Source: a virus
Lineage: Duplodnaviria > Heunggongvirae > Uroviricota > Caudoviricetes
Length of the DNA stretch: 64,000 nt
Virus record (IMG/VR): IMGVR_UViG_3300046047_000103
Strand: one strand, 5' to 3'
The number at the start of each line of letters is the position of its first letter. Positions within the stretch are counted from its first letter, which is position 1. The notes beneath the pieces are model-generated. The model saw only the letters and a program-made list of their open reading frames with translations, was not told the origin of the DNA and ran no database searches. A program made the translations under genes and the position numbers. Below are positions 5,323 through 64,000 of this stretch, piece by piece.

Positions 5323-5389
5323 GTCCTCAGAACGCGAAAATGGAAAAGGGCGAGATGGCAACGTTTAGAGTGTAACATGCGGAAGCATA

Positions 5390-5640
5390 TCCTAGGATAC
5401 ACCCGTCTGGGCCGACGGCGCTCGAGGGCCGGGGACGCAGGGTCAACGGGGTCTCGCCCGCACGATGCTACGGCCGCGCCGCGGAGCTCATCTTGACGGC
5501 CCGCCGGACATGATTCAATGATGCCACTGGTCCGGGGGAGCTTAAGGGCTTGCCGGTGGTCCGAGGCGCTCATGGTCTGTGGGATGGTGCAAGCAGGAGG
5601 ACGAGATGCAGGACGAGACGAGATAAGCAAGTGCATGATG
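5390..5640. other. GC-rich (~68% GC) non-coding island. Candidate structured RNA or DNA element.
   Basis: Only Arg/Pro-rich junk ORFs on either strand. Composition is sharply different from the flanks. Confidence 0.35.
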
Positions 5641-5724
5641 CAAGCAGGGTCTTAAGATCTCCATGATCTTGGTCTCAGAATGATCTCAGTCTTAACGATC
5701 TTAAGATCTTAATTCTTAAGGAAG

Positions 5725-17732: not shown

Positions 17733-20507
17733 GTGAACATGGCATTGTCTACACTGTCCAAGGCTAACACCGCGGTCACCGGTCATAAGACCGTAGGGTT
17801 CATGGGTAGTACGATCAGCAAGCATACGATGACGTTCAGTGAGGACGTCATCCAGATGATCGTCCAGCAGTTGACGGATCTTTACAGTGATCCCATTGCT
17901 GCGACCGTGCGTGAGACCATATCGAACGCGATCGATGCGACCCTGCTGGCGAGGGAGCGGGGTGAGGATGCTCCAGATGTGGACGTGTCGACCCCATCTG
18001 CGTTCAGCCCCACGTTCACGGTGGAAGATCATGGCGTGGGCATGACGAGTGACCAGATCTACTCCAACTTCGCTGACTACGGCAATTCGACGAAGATCGA
18101 TGACATGACCGCAACGGGATCTAAGGGTCTTGGAGCTAAAGCGCCATTGGCCTACACGACGACGTGCGTGGTGTCGACCGTGAAGGATGGTCATAAGATC
18201 ATCCTCACCCTGAATCGTGGTGAGAATTCGAACGAGGCCGAGACCATCTTCGATGGTGATGTTGATGAGCATAATGGTACGAAGATAGAGATCCCGGTCC
18301 GCGCTGAGGATGCGGACAAGTTCCAGGAATGCATCAACAAGTACAAGATGAATGCAGACGCGAGCATCCCCCTGCGGATTGACGGTGAGCCGGCTTACAA
18401 GCAGTTCAATGAGATATGGTCGAAGCTCATCGACTTCCCGATCGCGAAGGACGCTGAGGGCAAAGACATCTATGGCACTCTGTACGTGAAGAAGTCTTAC
18501 ATCCGCCAAGCGTTCAAGGAATGGAGAGATCTTGTCAGAGCAGCCAGTAACCACGATTGGTCGACTGAGGACAGGAACAACATTGCAGAGATAACCTCGG
18601 TGTCGCTGATGGGCTGGAACTATGAGATGCGGGCCGGTCAGTATTACTACACGAAGAACGAGTTCTTGGTCAGGATAGCACCTGGCGTCGTCGACTTCCC
18701 TCCGTCTCGTGATTCGATCAAGCGGAATGACCGTCTTGACAGCCTGCTCGACGCTATCAGAGACGGCATGAAGATCAGGCCGTATGCCCCTGATGAATTC
18801 ACGGAGGAGTTCCCGGCTGCCGTGGCGGAGATCTGGGGATCGATATCCCCGGATGAACGCATCGAGGTTCTTGACCAGATAGCAGATATGGACTTCAAGA
18901 TGGACACCACTGCACTCATGAAGGTCTGGCCTGACGAGGTGAAGCTTTACACTGATGATTATGATGGGAAGTACTTCCGCGCGATTCTCGGATTCAACAT
19001 TCCGTACTCGACGACCTTTCCCATGATATCAAGTTCATTCATCTTCAGGAACAATTCGATGGCAGACAAGACGGAGTCACCGTTGTCCACATTCTCGATC
19101 CATGGGACGTCAGTGCGGAACATCAACATGCTTCTGAACAACTCTGCCGACGATGAGATCAATGATGACAAGACATCTGAGGCGCGTGCTGATGAGATCA
19201 ACGGTCTCTTCCGTGACGATGATGTTCTCGAAGATTGCTCTAAGCTGATCTCTGTCAGAATCGGTTGGATGAAGAAGCACGTATCACTGTTCGCGAGCGA
19301 TTACGCTTCGAACTCATGCCTGACCATCATCAAGGGCAAGTTCGAGGGCAGCAAGTCGTACAGAAGGCTGCGAAGGTACATCAAGTCGGATCAGATCAAC
19401 CATTCATCAAGACAGATCTGCTGCATCGTTGACGGGGATGTGGACGCTCACGACTTTGACGACATGAAGAAGTCCGCGGAGGCTAATCATGTCGAATGGG
19501 GTGGAGTCATCGACTGGGATGACGTGACGGTCAAGAGTAAGACTGTGAAGACTCCAGGCAAGAAGCAGGCCGAGAACGTTCCGGTCAGCGGATACCTGGA
19601 CGCAGCCGTGGGCAGCCCCCTCAGGCAGAGGTTCGCGGTGCTCCTGAACAGGAACGGTTCTTACCCCGACTTCAATGATACGCTTGATCTTCAGGATCTT
19701 AGAGACAATGATGGCACGGTGTGGATCTATTCCAGGAGCTGGGGGAATCGTGACGCTTGCATCTTGCTGACCGAGATGGTGAAGAACCGCGCCGTCGTTG
19801 ATGGAAAGCCGTTCGCTCTGATTAACGCCTCGGACCATGACCATGGACTGCGAGCAGCTGCCTTCAATGTCTTGTCAGGATATGACAAGATTTGGATCGT
19901 GGATGGTACTCCGAAGATCCCGCGCTACAAGGCTATGAAGGACGCTCACATCATCAAGTATGGTAGTGACCCTGGCTTAGCTATGAGCCAGGCTATACTG
20001 TCTGATGCTGACCATTGGTCTGACCTTGTCTATGAGTTCTTGTGTTCGACCGATCTGCTGACAGAGAAGTCGTCACTAGAGGCCAGGTTAATCAATCTGG
20101 CCGAGCAGATCACCGGAACCGTCAAGCATGCCAAGTCTTTTGACGCTAAGATGTACAAGGGCGTTCTTGACGTCATGCTGGAGGCGTCCAAACCTTACCA
20201 GTTCAAGCAGATCGTCGCCCCGTTGCTGAAGAATCCGCCTAAGAACGCCAAGGTGATGGAGGCGGCCAGGGAGCTGGCCTACCATTCCGAGCTTAAGTCC
20301 AAGATCCAGGATGACCAGTCTAACCTTGATGTCGTCATGGTGAAGTCCATGGTGACGACGAATTGGGGATGGGGATCATATGACATTCTCAAGGATCTCC
20401 CCAAGTTTGACCCCTCGACTTCCATGATCGCGCAGTCCATCAAGGAATGGTGGACTGGCTACGCGACCCCGATCTATAAGCATGCCGTCGCTAATTGCGG
20501 ATTCTGA
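17733..20507 (+). CDS. rIIA: rIIA-like protein with an N-terminal GHKL (Bergerat-fold) ATPase domain
   Basis: N box TVRETISNAIDA, G1 VEDHGVGMT and G2 GSKGLGAKAPLAY. 924 aa. A ~319-aa partner follows, as in T4 rIIA/rIIB. Confidence 0.55.
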   Translation: MNMALSTLSKANTAVTGHKTVGFMGSTISKHTMTFSEDVIQMIVQQLTDLYSDPIAATVRETISNAIDATLLARERGEDAPDVDVSTPSAFSPTFTVEDHGVGMTSDQIYSNFADYGNSTKIDDMTATGSKGLGAKAPLAYTTTCVVSTVKDGHKIILTLNRGENSNEAETIFDGDVDEHNGTKIEIPVRAEDADKFQECINKYKMNADASIPLRIDGEPAYKQFNEIWSKLIDFPIAKDAEGKDIYGTLYVKKSYIRQAFKEWRDLVRAASNHDWSTEDRNNIAEITSVSLMGWNYEMRAGQYYYTKNEFLVRIAPGVVDFPPSRDSIKRNDRLDSLLDAIRDGMKIRPYAPDEFTEEFPAAVAEIWGSISPDERIEVLDQIADMDFKMDTTALMKVWPDEVKLYTDDYDGKYFRAILGFNIPYSTTFPMISSSFIFRNNSMADKTESPLSTFSIHGTSVRNINMLLNNSADDEINDDKTSEARADEINGLFRDDDVLEDCSKLISVRIGWMKKHVSLFASDYASNSCLTIIKGKFEGSKSYRRLRRYIKSDQINHSSRQICCIVDGDVDAHDFDDMKKSAEANHVEWGGVIDWDDVTVKSKTVKTPGKKQAENVPVSGYLDAAVGSPLRQRFAVLLNRNGSYPDFNDTLDLQDLRDNDGTVWIYSRSWGNRDACILLTEMVKNRAVVDGKPFALINASDHDHGLRAAAFNVLSGYDKIWIVDGTPKIPRYKAMKDAHIIKYGSDPGLAMSQAILSDADHWSDLVYEFLCSTDLLTEKSSLEARLINLAEQITGTVKHAKSFDAKMYKGVLDVMLEASKPYQFKQIVAPLLKNPPKNAKVMEAARELAYHSELKSKIQDDQSNLDVVMVKSMVTTNWGWGSYDILKDLPKFDPSTSMIAQSIKEWWTGYATPIYKHAVANCGF

Positions 20508-28003: not shown

Positions 28004-29407
28004 GTGTCTATAGAGTTCATAGGGGTGGCTGCTATCGGCGTCATTGTCTTTCTGCTCGTATGGTTCTTGGTCAGCAGGTACAAGACGCCTACCATCAATG
28101 AAGCGTACATCATATCCGGCTCGACGAGCCGTGACTCGGAGGGGAACAAGTCCGTCCGCGTTCTGAGAAGTCGTGGAGGCTTCGTCTGGCCCATCTTCAA
28201 CAGGGTCGTCAGCATCTCCCTCCGTTCTCATCAGATCAGCACTGAATGCGAGGCGATCTCCAAGGATAAGATCAAGATCAAGCTCAAGGTCGTCACCACA
28301 TTCAAGGTGAATGACACCGAGGAAGACATCCGTCTTGCCGGGCAACGATTCTCCAAGCAAGAACAGCTCATGGAACCGTACGTGAAGGAGATCATTGAAG
28401 GCTCCATGCGTTCGATCGTCGGCGGCCTCTCGGTCGAGAGTCTGTTGAGTGATCGTGTCGAGTTCACGAAGCAGGTCAGAACTGAGGTCGCGGATTCGAT
28501 TGAGATCCAGGGTCTTAGACTTGATACGCTTCAGGTCCAGGACATCAGTGACCAGACCGGTTACATCGATGCGCTCGGCGCTCCGCAGGAAGCATCCGTG
28601 AAGAGGGATGCGGCGATCGCGGAGGCGAACGCTAAGCAGGAAGCCCAGAAGGCGCAGATCAGTGCTGACAAGGTCATTGCCCAGAGCCAGAAGGATCTGG
28701 CATTGCAGCAGGCTTCCATCAAGGCCGAGACCGGTAAGGCAGACGTGAACGCAGATGCCGTCAAGAATCTTGAACAGCAGGCGCAGAACAGGAAGATCGC
28801 AGAGGCCGAGGCGCTGGCCGAGGCCGAGAACGTGAAGCTTCAGAGAGTCAGGCTTGAATCTGAAGTGAACACGAAGGCCGACGCTGAGAAGTACAGGCGT
28901 CGTACTGAGGCCGAGGCGCAGGCTGAGGTCACGAAGCAGAACGCTGCCGCCGATGCCGAGTCCACAAGACTGAGCGCAGAGGCGTCCGCCAAGGCTATTA
29001 AACTTGAGGGCAATGCGAAGGCTGCCGCCGTGAGGGCGCAGGGTCTGGCTGAGGCCGAGGCGATGAACAAGAAGGCTGAGGCGTACCGTAAGTATGGTCA
29101 GGCCGCATTGCAGTCCCTGATCATCGAGAAGCTGCCGGAGCTTGCATCTGCCATCAGCAAGCCGCTTGAAGGCGCGAAGATCACGTCGGTTGGTACTGAC
29201 GCGCAGGACAGGACGTCGGGCCTTGTCACCGATCTTGCCGCCAAGCTGCCGACACTCGTGAACACGCTCACCGGTGTGGATCTTGCCGGGTCGCTTCGGA
29301 AGCTCGCTAATGGTAAGGCTGATGCTGACGCCGAGGCGCCCTCAGACAGCGCTGAATCTAAGAATGATGCTGCCGACGCCCTGGTCGAGACGACAGATGA
29401 GAAGTAG
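28004..29407 (+). CDS. SPFH/band-7 flotillin-like protein
   Basis: N-terminal TM, an SPFH core, and a long Ala/Glu/Lys coiled-coil (EAEA repeats) typical of flotillins. Confidence 0.8.
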   Translation: MSIEFIGVAAIGVIVFLLVWFLVSRYKTPTINEAYIISGSTSRDSEGNKSVRVLRSRGGFVWPIFNRVVSISLRSHQISTECEAISKDKIKIKLKVVTTFKVNDTEEDIRLAGQRFSKQEQLMEPYVKEIIEGSMRSIVGGLSVESLLSDRVEFTKQVRTEVADSIEIQGLRLDTLQVQDISDQTGYIDALGAPQEASVKRDAAIAEANAKQEAQKAQISADKVIAQSQKDLALQQASIKAETGKADVNADAVKNLEQQAQNRKIAEAEALAEAENVKLQRVRLESEVNTKADAEKYRRRTEAEAQAEVTKQNAAADAESTRLSAEASAKAIKLEGNAKAAAVRAQGLAEAEAMNKKAEAYRKYGQAALQSLIIEKLPELASAISKPLEGAKITSVGTDAQDRTSGLVTDLAAKLPTLVNTLTGVDLAGSLRKLANGKADADAEAPSDSAESKNDAADALVETTDEK

Positions 29408-30024: not shown

Positions 30025-31083
30025 CTACTTCTTCTTAGATCTGCGATACGTTCGCGGCTTCGGGGGATTCTGCTCCCAGATCGTCTTCACATCGTCAAGC
30101 GTGATCGTACGCGGATCGTTACCATCAGGAAGCGAGATGAACTGGGCTCGTCCCTTCGGTGTCTTCTTGAACCCGATCCATGGACCCCGCTTACCGATGC
30201 CAGTGAAGTAGCCCTCACCGATCTGTCGGGGAAGCTTGATCTCGCTGAACAGCTTGCTAGCAGCATCGAATGTGATCGTGTTCTCATCGTATCCATCTGG
30301 TATCGTCATGTTCACGGGCTTCGCGCTCTTCACCGGTGCGCCCTTCGTGTTCAGCTTCACGGCTTGCACGTATGCGCCGTACTTACCGCTCTTCGCCGTC
30401 AACTGGTAGCCAGCGTACGGACCGTCAGACAGTACTCCAAGAACATGATTCACGATCGGCTTCGCGTCGGCTAGCAGCTTCTTGCAAGCATTCGGGGATA
30501 GGGCGTCTTCACTGGTGAGAGCATCATCGTCCAATCTCACGCTCTTCACGTACCCGTCATCATTCTTCTGACCCGACGGATCTTCCAGCCATGCTCCTGC
30601 CTTGTTCACTCTCACCACGTACCCGCCGTTCAGATGGATCTCGGACAGCGTGTTGACCTCATCCCAATTGATGTTCTTGGCAAGTCCGTTCACCTTGCGG
30701 TCAATGCCGTCGGATCCCTTCCACGCCGTGTCCAGGAACTCCTTCAACGTGATCTTCCCGGACGCGATGTCGTCAAGCTGATCTTCCATGTGAGCGGTGA
30801 AGCCGTAATCAATGAAGTCGGGCATGGTCGCATCCAAGATCTGCGCGACCTTCATGCCGGTCCATGTCGGGACCATGGCCTTACCCTTCTTCTGGACGTA
30901 CCCGCGCTTCTGGTTAACGGTGACAAGATTCGCATACGTGGATGGCCGGCCGATGCCAAGCTCTTCCATCTTGGCGACCAGCTGCGGTTCCGTGTACCGT
31001 GGTGGCGGGGTAGTCGTATGGGTCTGTGGAGAGGCGTTCGAGATCACACACTCTTCCCCGACCTTGAAGTCATAGTCTGTCAT
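30025..31083 (-). CDS. topA: DNA topoisomerase IA, C-terminal cistron
   Basis: PPPRYTEPQLVAKMEELGIGRPSTYANLV. Its ATG overlaps the upstream TGA (TGATG) and is preceded by AGGAGGG. Confidence 0.8.
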   Translation of the reverse strand: MTDYDFKVGEECVISNASPQTHTTTPPPRYTEPQLVAKMEELGIGRPSTYANLVTVNQKRGYVQKKGKAMVPTWTGMKVAQILDATMPDFIDYGFTAHMEDQLDDIASGKITLKEFLDTAWKGSDGIDRKVNGLAKNINWDEVNTLSEIHLNGGYVVRVNKAGAWLEDPSGQKNDDGYVKSVRLDDDALTSEDALSPNACKKLLADAKPIVNHVLGVLSDGPYAGYQLTAKSGKYGAYVQAVKLNTKGAPVKSAKPVNMTIPDGYDENTITFDAASKLFSEIKLPRQIGEGYFTGIGKRGPWIGFKKTPKGRAQFISLPDGNDPRTITLDDVKTIWEQNPPKPRTYRRSKKK

Positions 31084-32504
31084 CAGTCCCTCCTACCGTC
31101 GTCATAGACCTTCAGGAATCCTGGGTCATCTATTCTTGTACTTGCCGTCGTGAAGACAGCCTTGCCGTCAGTTGACGTGATCGTGATCTTCTTCGTCACT
31201 CCACGGGCCGGATCCATCTGACTGGCCACGCTTCTCCTATAGACAAGATCGTACACGTCCCCGGCCTTGTCGTCGAATGCTGATCCGCCCGTCATCCTAC
31301 GGATCTTGGATGGGGCATAGAACACCCCGGTCGCCTCATCGATCACGGGACGGATGCATTCATGGCCCTCCTGCGCGTTCTTCGACTTTGACTTGTAGAC
31401 AATGGGCTTTGCCGGCATCTTGCCTCCATACTGCTTCCTGATGATAGCCCTGGCTGCATTGATCGCCTCGCTGGCCATTGCCGGGCTGTCCGTCCTGGAG
31501 TACGTCTGGTACGTGTGCTCGAAGAGCTGCTGGGCGATCGTCATAGATCTGCTTGCGGACAGTCCTAGCAGGCTTCCAACATTCTGCTGGTATGATGACG
31601 TGGTGTACGGGACGGGTGGACGTCTGGCGTACGGTCGTTCCGTGATGTCCGTGATCGTGTACGCTAATGTCTTCAAGTCGCTGACGGCCTGTTGCAGATC
31701 TTTACCTAGAAGGACGATCTTCCCCTTGTTCTTCAGCTTGCCGTCAGCCGTGAAGTCGCCGGATCCAGCCATCTTCCTGCCATTCCATTCGACGAGTGAC
31801 GCTGTGATCTCATTCGGTCTGCCTTCATTGAAGACAGCGTCAATAGATCCGTACTCTGATGGGATGAATCTGATCCGCTCCTTCTCCCGGTCGACCACGA
31901 GACGAAGCGCCGGACTCTGCGCCCTGCCGCCGGACGTTCCTGACCCTACGGTCTTCCAGAGGTACGGGCTGACGCTGAATCCGAAGAGACGATCATACTC
32001 CTGACGGGCTTGTGCAGACTGTGCTTTCAAGGTGTCCACAGATCCGTACGCTTCAAGTCCGGCAAGCACGGCCTTCTTCGTGATCTCATGCCATGATGCT
32101 CGCCTGACATCCATGTGCTGCTTCTTCAGATCGTTCTTAAGCGAGTCGGCCACCTCGTATCCGATGAGTTCGCCGGCTTCATCAGGGTCAGTGCTGACAT
32201 AGAAGTGCTTCCAGCGGCCAGATCTGACCGCATCCCTGATCTCATTCCATTGCTTCCTGTTCTGCGGATCGTGGTCAAGCAGCCGATCATAACTGCCATC
32301 ACTGACATTGATCGAGTATGATCCGTAGATCTGCTTCTCATCCTTGGAGAGCTTCTTCGGATCCTTCAGCTCGAACATGAATCCCTTGGTAGGCATGATC
32401 AGCCATTTGGATCCCAGGAATCCGGAGATCTCCCTAGCCTTCGTCGGTGACTCTACGATCATCAGACCGCCGTCGCTTAGTATCGTTTTGATGTCATCAC
32501 TCAT
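31083..32504 (-). CDS. topA: DNA topoisomerase IA, N-terminal cistron (Toprim plus catalytic Tyr)
   Basis: IVESPTKAREI, DPDEAGELIGYEV, SGRAQSPALRLV and QTYSRTDSPAMAS (catalytic Tyr). Confidence 0.85.
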   Translation of the reverse strand: MSDDIKTILSDGGLMIVESPTKAREISGFLGSKWLIMPTKGFMFELKDPKKLSKDEKQIYGSYSINVSDGSYDRLLDHDPQNRKQWNEIRDAVRSGRWKHFYVSTDPDEAGELIGYEVADSLKNDLKKQHMDVRRASWHEITKKAVLAGLEAYGSVDTLKAQSAQARQEYDRLFGFSVSPYLWKTVGSGTSGGRAQSPALRLVVDREKERIRFIPSEYGSIDAVFNEGRPNEITASLVEWNGRKMAGSGDFTADGKLKNKGKIVLLGKDLQQAVSDLKTLAYTITDITERPYARRPPVPYTTSSYQQNVGSLLGLSASRSMTIAQQLFEHTYQTYSRTDSPAMASEAINAARAIIRKQYGGKMPAKPIVYKSKSKNAQEGHECIRPVIDEATGVFYAPSKIRRMTGGSAFDDKAGDVYDLVYRRSVASQMDPARGVTKKITITSTDGKAVFTTASTRIDDPGFLKVYDDGRRD

Positions 32505-45332: not shown

Positions 45333-46613
45333 ATGATGATAGACTCCATGAACATGAACAGAACAAGGATCTACTTCTTACAGGGATGCCATGGATCCGG
45401 TAAGACTAATTTCATTGCTAGTAACGGACTTCAAGACTATACGGTGTCCATAGATGAGATCATAACGGCCTTGCATCCAACGGCCGACCGGTATGATCCG
45501 GTTACTGGGGAGATCCGATCCCATGAGGTTGATGTCACTAGGGACACCCTGTCATCAGCTCTTGACGTCGCGCAGTCCATCATCGAGCGTCGGATGCAGC
45601 TAGGCTCCGTCATCATCGTGGACTGGCTAGACGTGAAGCGGAGACGGATCGGTAAGATGATTGATCTCGCCTCGAAGTACCGGTACGGCGTGTCATTCGT
45701 TGACGTCCAGCGCGGGCTGACGCTCGATGAAGCTGTGGACAGATCGTATCCGTTATGGCCGCAGGATGAGGTCATGAAGACATGGACTGACAAGCACCAT
45801 TTCGAGTACGGTCGAGACGATGAGGTGATCACGCCAGCCGAGCTTGCCAGCAGGATGCATGTGAGTGAGGTCGATCTGTCCCCATATGATCGCGTCAACG
45901 TGGTTGGTGACATCCAGGGGTGCTTCCATGCGCTGGAGAGATCCGGTCTTGACAAGCATGCGGACAATGAGTACACGATCTTCTGTGGAGATCTGTTCGA
46001 CAGGGGTCCAGCTGATGAAGCCGGTCCGATGTTCGACTGGCTGGTTGATCATATCAGTGATGATCATATGACGTTCGTCCGTGGGAACCATGACTCGTAC
46101 ATCAAGTACTATGGTAATCCCGTGTACAAGCCGTACTCCAAGTCTACGGTCGACACGATCAATGAGATCATGCAGGATGCGGCCAGTGTCCGCGGATCGG
46201 ATAAGATGCTGCGCCGGCATGGTCACCGGATCAATGATGGGATGGTCGACTTCTTCCCGTTCAGGATCAATGGGAAGCATTACTTCGCATCTCATGCCGG
46301 TGTCCATCCGAATGATCTTCCGTACACAGATCTGGGAGGGTCGAGGACATATGAGATCGGCTTCGATACCGGAGCTAAGTACTGGTACGGAACAGGGTTA
46401 AGACCAGGATTCCATGACTACAGGATCGACATCGACAAGATCGTGGACGCTACGGACACTGACATCATCCAGTTCCATGGCCACAGGAATGAGTACAAGC
46501 ATCGTCCTGATGAGTACGGCAAGATCTTCAATCTTGAGACCGGAGTGGAGAAGGGCGGCAAGCTGAGTACGGCGACGATCGTGAACGGCGGGGTAACCAT
46601 CCAGCAATTCTGA
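45333..46613 (+). CDS. polynucleotide kinase-phosphatase-like protein (P-loop kinase plus calcineurin-like metallophosphoesterase)
   Basis: GCHGSGKTNF (T4 Pnk-like Walker A). GDIQGCF, FCGDLFDRGP and VRGNHD (metallophosphatase motifs). Confidence 0.6.
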   Translation: MMIDSMNMNRTRIYFLQGCHGSGKTNFIASNGLQDYTVSIDEIITALHPTADRYDPVTGEIRSHEVDVTRDTLSSALDVAQSIIERRMQLGSVIIVDWLDVKRRRIGKMIDLASKYRYGVSFVDVQRGLTLDEAVDRSYPLWPQDEVMKTWTDKHHFEYGRDDEVITPAELASRMHVSEVDLSPYDRVNVVGDIQGCFHALERSGLDKHADNEYTIFCGDLFDRGPADEAGPMFDWLVDHISDDHMTFVRGNHDSYIKYYGNPVYKPYSKSTVDTINEIMQDAASVRGSDKMLRRHGHRINDGMVDFFPFRINGKHYFASHAGVHPNDLPYTDLGGSRTYEIGFDTGAKYWYGTGLRPGFHDYRIDIDKIVDATDTDIIQFHGHRNEYKHRPDEYGKIFNLETGVEKGGKLSTATIVNGGVTIQQF

Positions 46614-58508: not shown

Positions 58509-59972
58509 GTGGAGGTGATGAGATTGATGATGAAGAATGGTAAGGTCATGATAGATGACCAAGATCTCTCCGTTGAGATCGGTGAAGCGAAGCGGCTTGG
58601 ATCGCAGTACGCGGAGTCAGATCACGATCTTGCTCTTGTTGGAGGACCGGTACGTGACCTGATGCTCGGATCGCATCCGAAGGACTTCGATATGACCACG
58701 GACGCCAGACCGGATGTCTCCGAGCGGATCTTGAAGGCGTGGGGATCGTCATTCTGGAACGTGGGTAAGAAGTACGGTACGATCGGTGCTGGCAGGGATG
58801 TCAGCAATGGTGTCCACATGGACGTCGAGGTCACCACGTACCGCAGCGATTCGTATGATGGGCGATCTCGCAAGCCTGCCGTGAAGTGGGGATCATCCCT
58901 GGAGGGTGACCTGCATCGTCGTGACTTCACCATGAATGCAATGGCCATCACCCTCCCCGGAATGAAGCTCGTGGATCCGTTCCATGGAGCGGAGGCTATA
59001 AAGAACAAGATCATCATGACGCCGGGTTCCCCGTATGACTCATTCAATGATGACCCGCTGCGGATGCTTCGTGCGGTCAGGTTCGCTGGCAAGCTTGGAT
59101 TCCATCTTGACGGCAGGGTGCTTGACGCGATCCGTGAGATGGCGCCGCGTCTGGATGAGATCAGCCGTGAACGGGTGTCTGACGAGTTGTCGAAGATCAT
59201 GCTGTCCGCCCATCCTGTGGACGCTCTGAAGCTGATGATGGATTCAGGTCTGATGGATCATGTGCTTCCTGAGTTCTCGGAGCTGAAGAGAAGTGATGCG
59301 ACGAGCCGTGGGATGCATAAGCTGAATTACGAGCATTCCCTCACGGTGCTGGAGAACGCGATCAGCATGGAGGACAGGCTCGGTAACGGGCCAGATCTGA
59401 TTCTTCGACTGTCCGCATTGCTTCATGATGTCGGCAAGGCCAGGACTCGCAGGTTCAATGGTCGCAGGAAGGTCACGTTCGACCAGCATGAATTCGTTGG
59501 TGCAGACATGATTCGGAAGCGTCTGAGGGCATTGAAGTATCCGAATGACGTGGTGAAGACCGTGAGTGATCTTATCGGACTGCATATGAGGGCTCACGGG
59601 TATGAGAGCAACGGATGGACTGATTCAGCCGTGCGGAGATTCGTGCATGAGGTTGGACCGTTGTATGATCGTCTCATGATTCTTACAAGAGCGGATGTGA
59701 CCACGTCCCATGCATCAAAAAAGGTGCGGGTGATGAAGAGCATCGACTCTCTTGAAGCGCATGTGGACAAGCTCTGGAAGATGGACGATCTGAATGCTGT
59801 CAGACCTGAGATCGATGGGAATGAGATCATGAAGATCCTTCAGATTCGACCTGGTAAGATCGTTGGCCAGTGCTATCGTCATATGCTTGAGTACAGGATC
59901 GTGAACGGTGCGGTCGGCCATGCAGCCGCGGTCCAGGAGCTGAAGAGATTCTACGCGGAGATCGCAGGTTGA
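58509..59972 (+). CDS. cca: CCA-adding tRNA nucleotidyltransferase with an HD domain
   Basis: LVGGPVRDLMLG, DFDMTTDARP, RRDFTMNAMA and LHDVGK. Confidence 0.8.
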   Translation: MEVMRLMMKNGKVMIDDQDLSVEIGEAKRLGSQYAESDHDLALVGGPVRDLMLGSHPKDFDMTTDARPDVSERILKAWGSSFWNVGKKYGTIGAGRDVSNGVHMDVEVTTYRSDSYDGRSRKPAVKWGSSLEGDLHRRDFTMNAMAITLPGMKLVDPFHGAEAIKNKIIMTPGSPYDSFNDDPLRMLRAVRFAGKLGFHLDGRVLDAIREMAPRLDEISRERVSDELSKIMLSAHPVDALKLMMDSGLMDHVLPEFSELKRSDATSRGMHKLNYEHSLTVLENAISMEDRLGNGPDLILRLSALLHDVGKARTRRFNGRRKVTFDQHEFVGADMIRKRLRALKYPNDVVKTVSDLIGLHMRAHGYESNGWTDSAVRRFVHEVGPLYDRLMILTRADVTTSHASKKVRVMKSIDSLEAHVDKLWKMDDLNAVRPEIDGNEIMKILQIRPGKIVGQCYRHMLEYRIVNGAVGHAAAVQELKRFYAEIAG

Positions 59973-62015: not shown

Positions 62016-62089
62016 CGGGTCGTAGCCCAGCTTGGTAGGGCGCCTCGTTCGGGACGAGGAGGCCGCGGGTTCAAATCCCGCCAACCCGA
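62016..62089 (+). tRNA. tRNA-Pro (anticodon CGG)
   Basis: Cloverleaf folded by hand. D arm gccc/gggc, anticodon arm cctcg-ttcggga-cgagg, T arm gcggg-ttcaaat-cccgc. One C.A mismatch in the acceptor stem. No encoded CCA. Confidence 0.7.
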
Positions 62090-62180
62090 CACGCCGTGGG
62101 AACACGATTGTCAACGACCGTGTTATCATGGATAACGCCGCGCTTCACGGAGCGTCGATAACTTAAGAATGCACCATCAA

Positions 62181-62254
62181 CGGGATGTAGCGCAGCTTGG
62201 TAGCGCGCTTGCTTTGGGAGCAAGATGCCGCAGGTTCGAATCCTGTCATCCCGA
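62181..62254 (+). tRNA. tRNA-Pro (anticodon UGG)
   Basis: Acceptor cgggatg/catcccg is a perfect pair. Anticodon arm cttgc-tttggga-gcaag. T arm gcagg-ttcgaat-cctgt. Confidence 0.75.
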
Positions 62255-62792
62255 CGATGATCGCCTGATTCTCGTGACTGACTGATCGAGTGACGCTCGT
62301 GAAGATCAGCCGCGATGGTGATCTGAATAACTGAATACAGAACTGCTCGCACCAGTTGGAAGCAAAGTGCGCGACGGCCCGGGTACCGGAATGTGAAAGA
62401 ACTCACCCTGCTTGGTCACGAAGATCACCATGTAGTCGATGGTGCAGTGACGGAGCGCCTGAATACAGGATCGAGCATGGGGAAGCCATCGCCCTGATTC
62501 TTGAAGGTCCGTATGGATCTGATGGAGATGTACATTGTACGTCAGCAACGCGATGATAACTCATGAACGGGATTACCAGCGTCATTCATGGAATGTTGAC
62601 GACCCGTAGACATAAACAAGTTCCTTCAGATTATCTTCAAAACGATGCAGATCTGCGGTCGGTGCGATGCAGATCTGAGGTCGTCGTCCCACCGGTGAGA
62701 TGCACCGGCAACCGTTGATGATGCTGTGACCGCATCATTGACAGCACATGTGGTCATCGTCGTGCTGGCGGACGTGAAACGCCAGTTCTTAT

Positions 62793-62867
62793 TCCCCGGG
62801 AGCAACCTTCGGCGGCTGCGATCGACTGTTAATCGATAGAGAGCTGGTTCGACTCCAGTCCGGGGAG
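62793..62867 (+). tRNA. tRNA-Asn (anticodon GUU), with an atypical D arm
   Basis: Acceptor tccccgg/ccgggga. Anticodon arm atcga-ctgttaa-tcgat. T arm gctgg-ttcgact-ccagt. The D region is 2 nt longer than canonical. Confidence 0.55.
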
Positions 62868-63069
62868 CGATGGTTGAAAAGGGCGAAGATTGTTAAAAGA
62901 TTGCTCATCATTCTGAATCCACGTGGTAGCTCCTCGTGGACGATGATAGGAAAGTCCGGAATCGAAAACTGATGACGATCATACTCTGGTCAATGTGCCA
63001 TACAATCGGGAGGTCCATATCGTAATTCAGCGAGGCCTAGCGAGTAATTGACCTCAAGGTCCATCCAAT

Positions 63070-63146
63070 GCTTTCATGGCCCAATCGGCAGAGGCGCAGG
63101 GCACACTGCAGACCTGTTCATACTGGTTCGACTCCAGTTGGAAGCA
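63070..63146 (+). tRNA. tRNA-like element with a non-canonical anticodon region (possible pseudo- or unusual tRNA)
   Basis: Good acceptor (gctttca/tggaagc) and T arm (actgg-ttcgact-ccagt), and a D arm of the Leu/Ser type (ccaatcggcagaggc). No 5-7-5 anticodon hairpin can be drawn; the best fit is gcagg-gcacactgcaga-cctgt with a 12-nt loop. Confidence 0.3.
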
Positions 63147-63259
63147 CGCAGTATCAGTAGGCTATGAGCTGGCAGCGTGACGCAAGTCATCTTGGTTATC
63201 TGTGACCACCAGCGAGCTGAATGCAATAGCAGACGGGTGAGTGCAAGGCTCACCATCAT

Positions 63260-63344
63260 GGATGATTCGCATAGAGGCCTAGTGCACTTGTCTTGAAAAC
63301 AAGAGTGGGTCACACCACCGGGGGTTCGAATCCCTCATCATCCG
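63260..63344 (+). tRNA. tRNA-Ser (anticodon UGA), type II
   Basis: Acceptor ggatgat/atcatcc is a perfect pair. 3-bp D stem. Anticodon arm cttgt-cttgaaa-acaag. Long variable arm gtgg-gtcaca-ccac. T arm ggggg-ttcgaat-ccctc. Confidence 0.75.
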
Positions 63345-63454
63345 CGACCCGTACGTTGGGTCCATCTGGCGACACGATGGATTGGCGGTCCATCTTCTCC
63401 TGGCGGGGGATAGCCGGTTGATGTGATCGCATACGGATTGCATCGCATACAGAT

Positions 63455-63539
63455 GCCCTCATGGCTGGAATAGGTAGACGCGGACGGCTCAAACCCGTCT
63501 CCCGTAATGGGGATCTCGGTTCGACTCCGAGTGAGGGTA
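63455..63539 (+). tRNA. tRNA-Leu (anticodon CAA), type II
   Basis: Acceptor gccctca/tgagggt. D loop ggaataggtagac. Anticodon arm gacgg-ctcaaac-ccgtc. Long variable arm. T arm ctcgg-ttcgact-ccgag. Confidence 0.7.
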
Positions 63540-63804
63540 CGACGAACACATCGGGCGGCTTAATCACCCGTCCGGTCGTGGGCATACATATGTCGCGCGT
63601 GGACGTGATTGATCCACGTGGATAGCCCGTTGCCAGGCATGTCCCGGCGGAAGTTTGATGCAGATTCTGCGTAGTTCGTCTTCCGTTGGGATCACTTGAA
63701 GACAGGTGCGGCCCGTTGGCTGCGGTGGAAGTGGGGTCCGAGTACCCAACGGTACCGGTTAGACTCCGGCTCCGGCGCGTGGGAACTCATCCATCTCCAT
63801 ATCT

Positions 63805-63878
63805 GCTCTCTTAGCCCAATTGGTAGAGGCGATAGACCAAGGATCTATTCAGTGCGGGTTCGAGTCCCGTGGAGAGCA
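63805..63878 (+). tRNA. tRNA with an unusual anticodon loop CCAAGGA (apparent anticodon AAG, with C at position 33)
   Basis: Acceptor gctctct/ggagagc. Anticodon arm ataga-ccaagga-tctat. T arm gcggg-ttcgagt-cccgt. Confidence 0.45.
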
Positions 63879-64000
63879 CAGATCTCATGACATCCTTACG
63901 GATGTCCTCTGAGATTCAGGGTCGATTCACTGTGGTGGTGATGAACATGCTCAAGGCCCGTCATGCAAGCATAGGAGTATGGAGCGAAGTTCCTATGTGG

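Follow-up and report, generated by a model that had tools for sequence, protein, structure and literature searches.

The 64,000-nucleotide (nt) stretch of phage DNA analysed here (IMG/VR record IMGVR_UViG_3300046047_000103, Caudoviricetes; referred to below as the window) carries on its minus strand, at positions 30025..32504, two adjacent genes for the parts of a DNA topoisomerase. The two are real genes and, judged by sequence, probably encode jointly one TopA-type type IA topoisomerase that would be assembled from two chains via native interfaces. The split is a property of a whole group of related phage enzymes, in which the chain is interrupted at the same loop with varied junctions.

The first gene, open reading frame (ORF) A, encodes the 473 amino acids of topoisomerase subunit A (31083..32504, minus strand) and ends ...VYDDGRRD. 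ORF B (30025..31083, minus strand) encodes subunit B of 352 amino acids and starts MTDYDFKVGEEC. Both were taken from the ORF list and assigned with Pfam, and database proteins P0001 and P0121 are identical to ORF A and ORF B, respectively. The TGA of ORF A (31085..31083) and the ATG of ORF B (31083..31081) overlap by 1 nt as TGATG (31081..31085, minus strand), so that the length of ORF A and the overlap given in the initial annotation are exact in the raw sequence. The minus-strand junction reads ...GGT AGG AGG GAC TGA TG ACA.... The AGGAGGG that had been placed ahead of the second ATG is also present (31094..31088); it contains a Shine-Dalgarno (SD) sequence, AGGAGG (31089..31094, minus strand), inside the 3' end of ORF A and 5 nt before the ATG of ORF B. 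ORF B lies in the -1 frame relative to ORF A, and the ORF list holds no earlier in-frame start for it. No slippery heptamer was found in the window sequence before the ORF A stop, and there is no long homopolymer at the ORF A/ORF B junction.

Domains, conserved residues and selection

Pfam identified in ORF A a Toprim domain (PF01751, E 1.2e-9) and positions 4-287 of the 411 positions of the Topoisom_bac profile (PF01131, E 1.2e-57). ORF B continues with profile positions 299-410 (E 5.3e-35) and one Toprim_C_rpt (PF13368, E 5.2e-12). A single domain model is therefore cut between positions 287 and 299. ORF A runs from Toprim (domain D1) through the N-terminal portion of D4, the first crossing of D2, and D3, which bears the catalytic tyrosine, into most of the return D2 crossing. 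ORF B takes up the chain with the last strand of D2 and the D2/D4 hinge, followed by the C-terminal portion of D4, C-terminal domains of the actinobacterial Toprim_C_rpt type and a basic tail (RTYRRSKKK).

The initial annotation stated that both halves retain signature motifs, and the catalytic and DNA-binding residues are indeed invariant or nearly so in the alignments. On the ORF A side the invariant residues are E18 and K22 (VESPTK; Glu18 codon at 32451..32453, minus strand), D106 and D108 of the metal-binding DxD motif of Toprim (D106-P-D108, 32181..32189, minus strand), R167/D171/R172, and Y335 and R337 of the TYSRTDS motif. The codon of the active-site residue Tyr335, which corresponds to Escherichia coli Y319, is TAC (31500..31502, minus strand). 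The stretch PPPRYTEPQLV...GIGRPSTYA that had been attributed to ORF B is present in its translation, and here the H-T-PP-R-TE motif, with R29, and GIGRP are invariant or nearly so. The invariant Arg29 of PPPRYTE (codon CGG, 30997..30999, minus strand) corresponds to R516 of Mycobacterium tuberculosis topoisomerase I in the D2/D4 hinge region, and GIGRPSTYA, residues 43-51 in domain D4, is encoded at 30931..30957 (minus strand). The Toprim_C_rpt repeat, of the DNA-binding type found at the C-terminus of actinobacterial TopA, covers residues 225-281 (30241..30411, minus strand; Pfam and alignment to 6pcm).

The hallmarks of type IA enzymes, a Toprim domain with Glu and DxD and a Topoisom_bac core with the tyrosine of (T/S)Y.R(T/S)D, are thus present, as are the Toprim_C_rpt repeats (GxxGPY-type) and basic tail of the actinobacterial type. 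The catalytic core of a TopA is a single polypeptide; here it is distributed over two ORFs in different frames, and in the relatives over two genes too. The pair has the domain order of the TopA of M. tuberculosis and M. smegmatis (Toprim, Topoisom_bac and Toprim_C_rpt without zinc ribbons, then a basic tail) and conserves the catalytic tyrosine, the hinge arginine (R516 in M. tuberculosis) and GIGRPSTY. By its sequence it belongs with the actinobacterial-type topoisomerase I, and it would probably work in the same way. It differs from the cellular enzyme, a single chain of about 800-930 amino acids, in that the chain is cut between M. tuberculosis positions 474 and 498, in an alanine at the third triad position, in a shorter C-terminal domain and in being encoded by a huge phage.

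The complete acidic triad (E. coli D111, D113 and E115) was not found, and many fused phage relatives likewise lack it (TDPDRAG). The alanine of TDPD[ER]AG is common to much of the phage clade, split and fused (P0012-P0025, P0028, P0033 and P0241), and in the subclade of the window a glutamate stands one residue before it. The change was considered as a mark of the split and rejected, as it is also found in fused relatives. Metal coordination or chemistry may be altered compared with textbook TopA.

Between the window and its closest relative (L001) dN/dS was 0.10 for ORF A and 0.18 for ORF B, values that are rough as dS is saturated. With dN/dS of about 0.1-0.2, both halves are clearly under purifying selection.

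The break in relatives and its position in the structure

The split is not an assembly error. In 2.1 kb around the junction there are 0 mismatches between the JGI contig and two independent Logan assemblies of other sequencing runs (SRR16378841 and SRR16378897), and the 81-nt junction sequence is identical in all three. The best 14 homolog clusters of ORF A (51-100% identity) are all 453-498 amino acids long and stop 2-6 residues past GF(L/M)x(V/A/I)Y, and four further N-halves with about 36% identity (P0044, P0051, P0072 and L094) stop 5-9 residues past the corresponding motif GWTx(V/I)Y. ORF B matched 16 stand-alone C-halves of 335-408 amino acids, from 100% down to 38% identity, which begin 20-34 residues ahead of HxTxPPxR(F/Y)TE. 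P0129, a contig-end fragment of a fused gene, and P0021, a frameshifted copy, were left out of this set of half-proteins.

DNA was fetched for nine distinct related loci (73% to about 36% identity), and in each the chain is broken at the same loop. The junctions vary. The halves overlap by 17 nt in L082 (66% identity to ORF A) and are separated by spacers of 18 nt in L001 (73%), 47 nt in L084 (51%, with an rIIB gene near) and 134 nt in L086-L091 (59%). L094 (about 36%) has a 1-nt TGATG overlap like that of the window. Whole genes are found at the break in the others: a 112-amino-acid ORF in L095 (36%, on a 475-kb contig), a 466-amino-acid ORF in L096 (51%; the C-half begins at the contig end, MNDSLFNIGDTMDLSSMKATEHKTTPPARY) and a 1425-amino-acid Big_2/SpaA gene of 4.6 kb in L085 (57%). 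In L083 (58%) the N-half is followed by a 1411-amino-acid Big_2/SpaA gene in which the contig ends, so that the C-half was not visible. The order and orientation of the halves are the same at all loci with both ends visible, and an SD-like purine run lies upstream of all B starts examined.

More distant homologs, which share at most 49% identity with the ORF A region, are unbroken: their genes encode 791-914 amino acids, and a loop of some 28-30 residues occupies the site of the break. The scans of IMG/VR gave L001, on a viral contig of 419,707 bp, as the sole related contig and the closest relative found. A scan of metagenome contigs with very general motifs gave at least 80 cellular topA loci (L002-L081) with 31-37% identity. 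Megablast of the region against 50,697 phage records gave no match, and tblastn found no cultured phage relative, the matches having at most 32% identity over the N-half and being mostly cellular-type topA in draft 'phage' records. Where the matching metagenomic proteins carry an annotation at all, it goes no further than 'DNA topoisomerase-1'.

The best solved relatives are the topoisomerases I of M. tuberculosis and M. smegmatis (5D5H and 6PCM; E 2.7e-74 and 1.7e-36). In the alignment, residue 468 of ORF A corresponds to chain residue 474 of 5D5H and residue 9 of ORF B to residue 498, which places the cut within the intervening acidic loop of D2, between about 420 and 456 in E. coli numbering. 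ORF B residues 13-291 were aligned with residues 498-795 of the M. smegmatis enzyme. An AlphaFold model of the fused relative P0015 had a mean predicted local distance difference test score (pLDDT) of 90.8, a predicted template modelling score of 0.80 and a TM-score against mycobacterial topoisomerase I of 0.88, normalised to the target 5d5h. Its sole 10-residue block with a mean pLDDT below 60 is 471-480 (YGKGQGDEND, mean 57), directly after GWMQVY; it lies in the coil 471-490, with a helix before it (466-470) and a strand after it (491-503). When the window halves were joined head to tail the pLDDT was 89.7, the junction 473/474 fell in the coil 467-486, and the block 471-480 scored 64, the second-lowest of the core. 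In these models the break falls in a D2 surface loop that is long, acidic and poorly ordered.

A 2026 preprint predicts a hinge at P506-L526 of M. tuberculosis topoisomerase I (MtbTOP1), at the D2/D4 border, and its R516A mutant lost relaxation but kept DNA binding and cleavage (PMC12889582). These residues correspond to ORF B residues 19-39 and R29, so the break is about 18 residues upstream of the start of the hinge (P506) and about 28 upstream of R516. Subunit B thus opens with the last D2 strand and leads directly into the hinge, and the chain no longer returns covalently from the D2/D3 'lid' to the D4/D1 'base'.

As the chain break lies in a poorly ordered surface loop, the halves should be able to assemble via interfaces that are normally intramolecular, by complementation of the D2 strand and packing of the D4 helices, to give the canonical toroid. 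Subunit A would supply the active site, comprising the Toprim metal site and the catalytic Tyr335. From subunit B would come the last D2 beta-strand, the hinge with its conserved arginine and what remains of D4, including much of its DNA-binding surface, together with the DNA-binding repeats at the C-terminus. Judged by homology with the solved structures, each of D2 and D4 would be made up of segments of both chains, and assembly should therefore be obligatory for a stable fold. Neither half has an added dimerisation module. In the window phage, TGATG together with the internal AGGAGG would couple translation of B to that of A and favour synthesis near 1:1. The translational coupling proposed in the initial annotation agrees with the architecture of the window and L094; this architecture is no general feature of the clade.

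Split and fused forms, inserted genes and alternative explanations

The trees of the N-part, the C-part and the concatenation agree that split and fused forms interleave. The fused P0020 is sister to the split L084/P0013-14 (bootstrap 96-100), the fused P0015 and P0241 lie inside the clade of the window's group and the L085/L086 group (bootstrap 100), and the fused P0243 is sister to the split L095 within the basal split group (bootstrap 93). In the N-part tree only, a fused group has the split P0012 as its sister (bootstrap 86). Fitch parsimony on the concatenated tree gave 5 changes between split and fused; among 200 bootstrap trees, 171 required 5 changes and 29 required 4, never fewer. In an exhaustive search of representatives at 50% identity, the phage clade comprised 6 split C-halves, 5 fused proteins and a 269-amino-acid fragment (P0247), and the score fell from 212 to 150 bits between this clade and the cellular enzymes. 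Within the huge-phage enzyme clade the same loop has thus been affected by four or more fissions or fusions and by three or more insertions of genes. Each change may have been a fission or a re-fusion, both of which are mechanistically easy in a loop that tolerates any sequence.

The loop DNA of the fused P0015 and P0018 was inspected for vestiges of stop, SD and start; it is suggestive in P0015, and nothing in it settles the direction of change. In L092, which encodes P0015, loop codons 462-505 contain an out-of-frame TAA that follows the VY codons directly and, within a few further bases, a GGGGGATG element. A single frameshift there could recreate stop, SD and start, as a vestige of, or a predisposition to, the split.

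It is extremely improbable that the pair is an artefact or a dead gene, a normal single topA broken by an indel or a recent frameshift. One base inserted after the TG of TGATG would join the frames in the window and the more distant relatives are continuous, findings that the initial annotation had named as grounds for abandoning its reading. The junction is nevertheless reproduced in the independent assemblies, fused genes appear only at 49% identity or less, and the closest relatives are all split. The nine related loci share the break point with differing junction lengths, frames and inserted genes, a strong SD and an ATG stand exactly at the break, and both halves have intact motifs under purifying selection. 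The claim that the pair is neither an indel artefact nor a pseudogene is thereby upheld. Production of a single polypeptide, by programmed frameshift, by stop read-through or reassignment or by trans-splicing of a split intein, is very improbable as well. Huge phages sometimes recode stop codons, and the 18-nt spacer of L001 is in frame and free of stops after its TAA; however, the other genes of the window are read through normally with code 11, the -1 frame of ORF B has no slippery heptamer before the window stop, the frame relations differ among loci (-17, -1, +18, +47 and +134 nt) and three lineages have genes of 0.3-4.6 kb between the halves. The varied junctions across loci make indel, programmed frameshift, read-through or reassignment, and pseudogene irreconcilable with the data. 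Split inteins were rejected: the A tails, of 2-9 residues, are too short, the 20-34 residues at the head of B have homology to the fused sequence, and no Hint or intein Pfam match was found in ORF A or ORF B.

A third explanation, which is unlikely, is that the two proteins no longer form a classical topoisomerase, A being a nicking or cleavage module and B a DNA-binding protein, or the two having a new joint role. Loss of the acidic residue equivalent to E115 would fit this, as would the separation of the halves by genes in some lineages, where strict co-translation is dispensable. On the other hand the halves co-occur in the same order and orientation wherever both ends are visible, the N-part and C-part trees agree on key groupings, and the residues of the intact enzyme are conserved on both sides of the break, including the hinge Arg29 and GIGRPSTYA. 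The alternation of fused and split forms among close relatives implies that they are functionally equivalent, and with D2 and D4 each formed from both halves, by homology, a lone half should lack a complete fold. A two-chain topoisomerase, the heterodimer proposed in the initial annotation, is the preferred explanation, against which the following points count. The TAA of L001 is followed by a spacer in frame without further stops, and read-through may occur at this one locus. The third residue of the acidic triad is lost, the equivalent of E. coli E115 being alanine (TDPDEAGE), with a glutamate one residue earlier. The trees are neighbour-joining trees only (445 columns for the N-part, 325 for the C-part and 765 for the concatenation), and the window halves were folded as one concatenated chain.

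The genes between the halves in the three lineages differ in type. In L095 the 112-amino-acid ORF (5353-5691) matches phrog_2590, of unknown function (E 2.8e-17); it shares 1 nt with the N-half stop, and its end lies 1 nt ahead of the C-half start. The 466-amino-acid product of the L096 ORF (1816-3216) is rich in CxxC double zinc ribbons (DZR_2, E 9e-12); its C-terminus (IEYDGEYYH...ERDERN) gave weak, Vsr-like matches to REase_MTES_1575/DUF559 (E 7e-4 and 2e-3), below the curated cut-offs. This protein may be a free-standing homing endonuclease, and the insert resembles the homing-endonuclease cases of 'genes-in-pieces', a resemblance offered as a lead, not a demonstration. The window has no homing endonuclease gene between its halves, the ORFs overlapping by 1 nt. 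The large genes of L085 (7738-12015, 1425 amino acids) and L083 (2425-4996 and off the end of the locus, 1411 amino acids) encode Big_2 and four SpaA prealbumin-like Ig-type domains. In L085 a gene of surface or structural type has landed within a replication-enzyme gene pair, demonstrably between the halves. Judging from the sortase, SpaA and NlpC/P60 genes carried by relatives, the host may be Gram-positive.

Tentatively, and with considerable doubt, the D2 loop may be regarded as an insertion hotspot for mobile or moron genes, whose arrival and later departure would drive cycles of fission and re-fusion, with phages exploiting altered gate or hinge dynamics in the split enzymes. A Vsr-like homing endonuclease would perhaps have come first, and the advantage would be easier opening of the toroid or exchange of subunits.

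Genome context, known split enzymes and implications

The window is part of the JGI contig Ga0455797_000015 (349,703 bp) and has the gene content of a huge phage: an rIIA-like gene, class I ribonucleotide reductase, primase, RNA ligase/phosphoesterase, CCA-adding enzyme and seven tRNAs. The neighbours of the topoisomerase pair are unrelated genes. Upstream of it is a 398-amino-acid ORF without Pfam or PHROG match. The next scanned gene downstream, convergent to the pair, encodes a Band_7/SPFH protein of 467 amino acids with a long Ala/Glu/Lys-rich coiled region (28004-29407, plus strand). The rIIA-like protein (17733-20507, plus strand) has 924 amino acids and a GHKL ATPase domain; like the Band_7/SPFH protein, it represents a membrane-associated function. 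The seven tRNAs were predicted with ARAGORN in an array at 62016-63879. One of them (63070-63147, plus strand; Rfam tRNA 36.5 bits, gathering cut-off 29) has a 4-base anticodon (actg) and no amino acid assigned; it could have an 8-nt anticodon loop, like a frameshift suppressor, or be degenerate or intron-bearing. Close to the array are genes for a CCA-adding enzyme (PolyA_pol head and HD; 58509-59972, plus strand) and an RNA ligase/metallophosphoesterase-like protein (45333-46613, plus strand), which look like a kit for tRNA repair and maintenance.

To our knowledge, reverse gyrase is the only type IA enzyme with natural split forms, and searches of the literature gave neither a split TopA-type enzyme nor a two-piece phage type IA topoisomerase. 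The Methanopyrus kandleri reverse gyrase, RgyA/RgyB, is said, by the title of work of Krah et al. from 1997, to be active when reconstituted from recombinant subunits. Its small subunit RgyA reportedly bears the DNA-linked tyrosine (Kozyavkin, 1994; Krah, 1996), so that its break would be upstream of D3; in the phage pair one subunit bears both Toprim and the tyrosine, with the break downstream of D3. We know of no description of recurrent fission and fusion for the M. kandleri enzyme. Its type IA fold is divided inside the topoisomerase domain (PMC4117796, PMC8185306). The phage pair resembles it in having the fold on two polypeptides with a break that is not at a domain-module boundary, while RgyA/RgyB belongs to a hyperthermophilic archaeon and is a reverse gyrase that includes a helicase module; Pfam found no helicase (SF2) domain in ORF A or ORF B. 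The reverse gyrase of Nanoarchaeum equitans consists of two gene products and is split between the helicase and topoisomerase modules (PMC8185306, PMC4117796). It is likewise a naturally split enzyme of the type IA family from two genes, but the split spares the topoisomerase fold, its two genes are not linked, and N. equitans is a cellular organism in which many genes are split.

Among phages, T4 gp39/gp60 (mobA), Aeh1 nrdA (mobE) and phage 25 gp43A/B are encoded by adjacent cistrons that are fused in related phages (PMC2988022, PMC3045599). The pieces of Aeh1 nrdA, T4 gene 39/60 and phage 25 gene 43 were created by insertion of homing endonucleases, and Aeh1 NrdA, phage 25 gp43 and T4 topoisomerase II (gp39/gp60) provide precedents for split enzymes that reassemble (PMC2988022). 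These are, like the present pair, replication or nucleotide enzymes in adjacent pieces, and some of the topoisomerase relatives also have a gene between the halves. They belong to other families (type IIA topoisomerase, ribonucleotide reductase and polymerase), and in the window there is no intervening endonuclease gene. The interaction sequences of Aeh1 NrdA derive from the mobile element, whereas the topoisomerase tails have only 2-9 residues.

In type IA topoisomerases the protein gate for DNA passage opens when D3 and D2 shift against D1 and D4, and the control of this shift by the two D2 crossings and the D2/D4 hinge is still under study (PMC9960139, PMC12889582). In the split phage enzymes lid and base have one covalent link instead of two, and close relatives keep both split and fused forms, which provides matched natural pairs for biochemical and single-molecule tests. 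If the loop is indeed a hotspot whose interruption alters gate dynamics, such enzymes would be natural 'nicked-hinge' variants for probing gate opening. A TopA-type enzyme can apparently be built from two chains, and the D2 loop would be a permissive site for engineered split or insertion variants. In the annotation of huge phages, a 'truncated' topA of 450-480 amino acids followed by a 'partial topoisomerase' of 335-410 amino acids would represent a two-subunit enzyme, not pseudogenes. The pair would add a type IA case to the phage 'genes-in-pieces' known for ribonucleotide reductase, DNA polymerase and T4 topoisomerase II.

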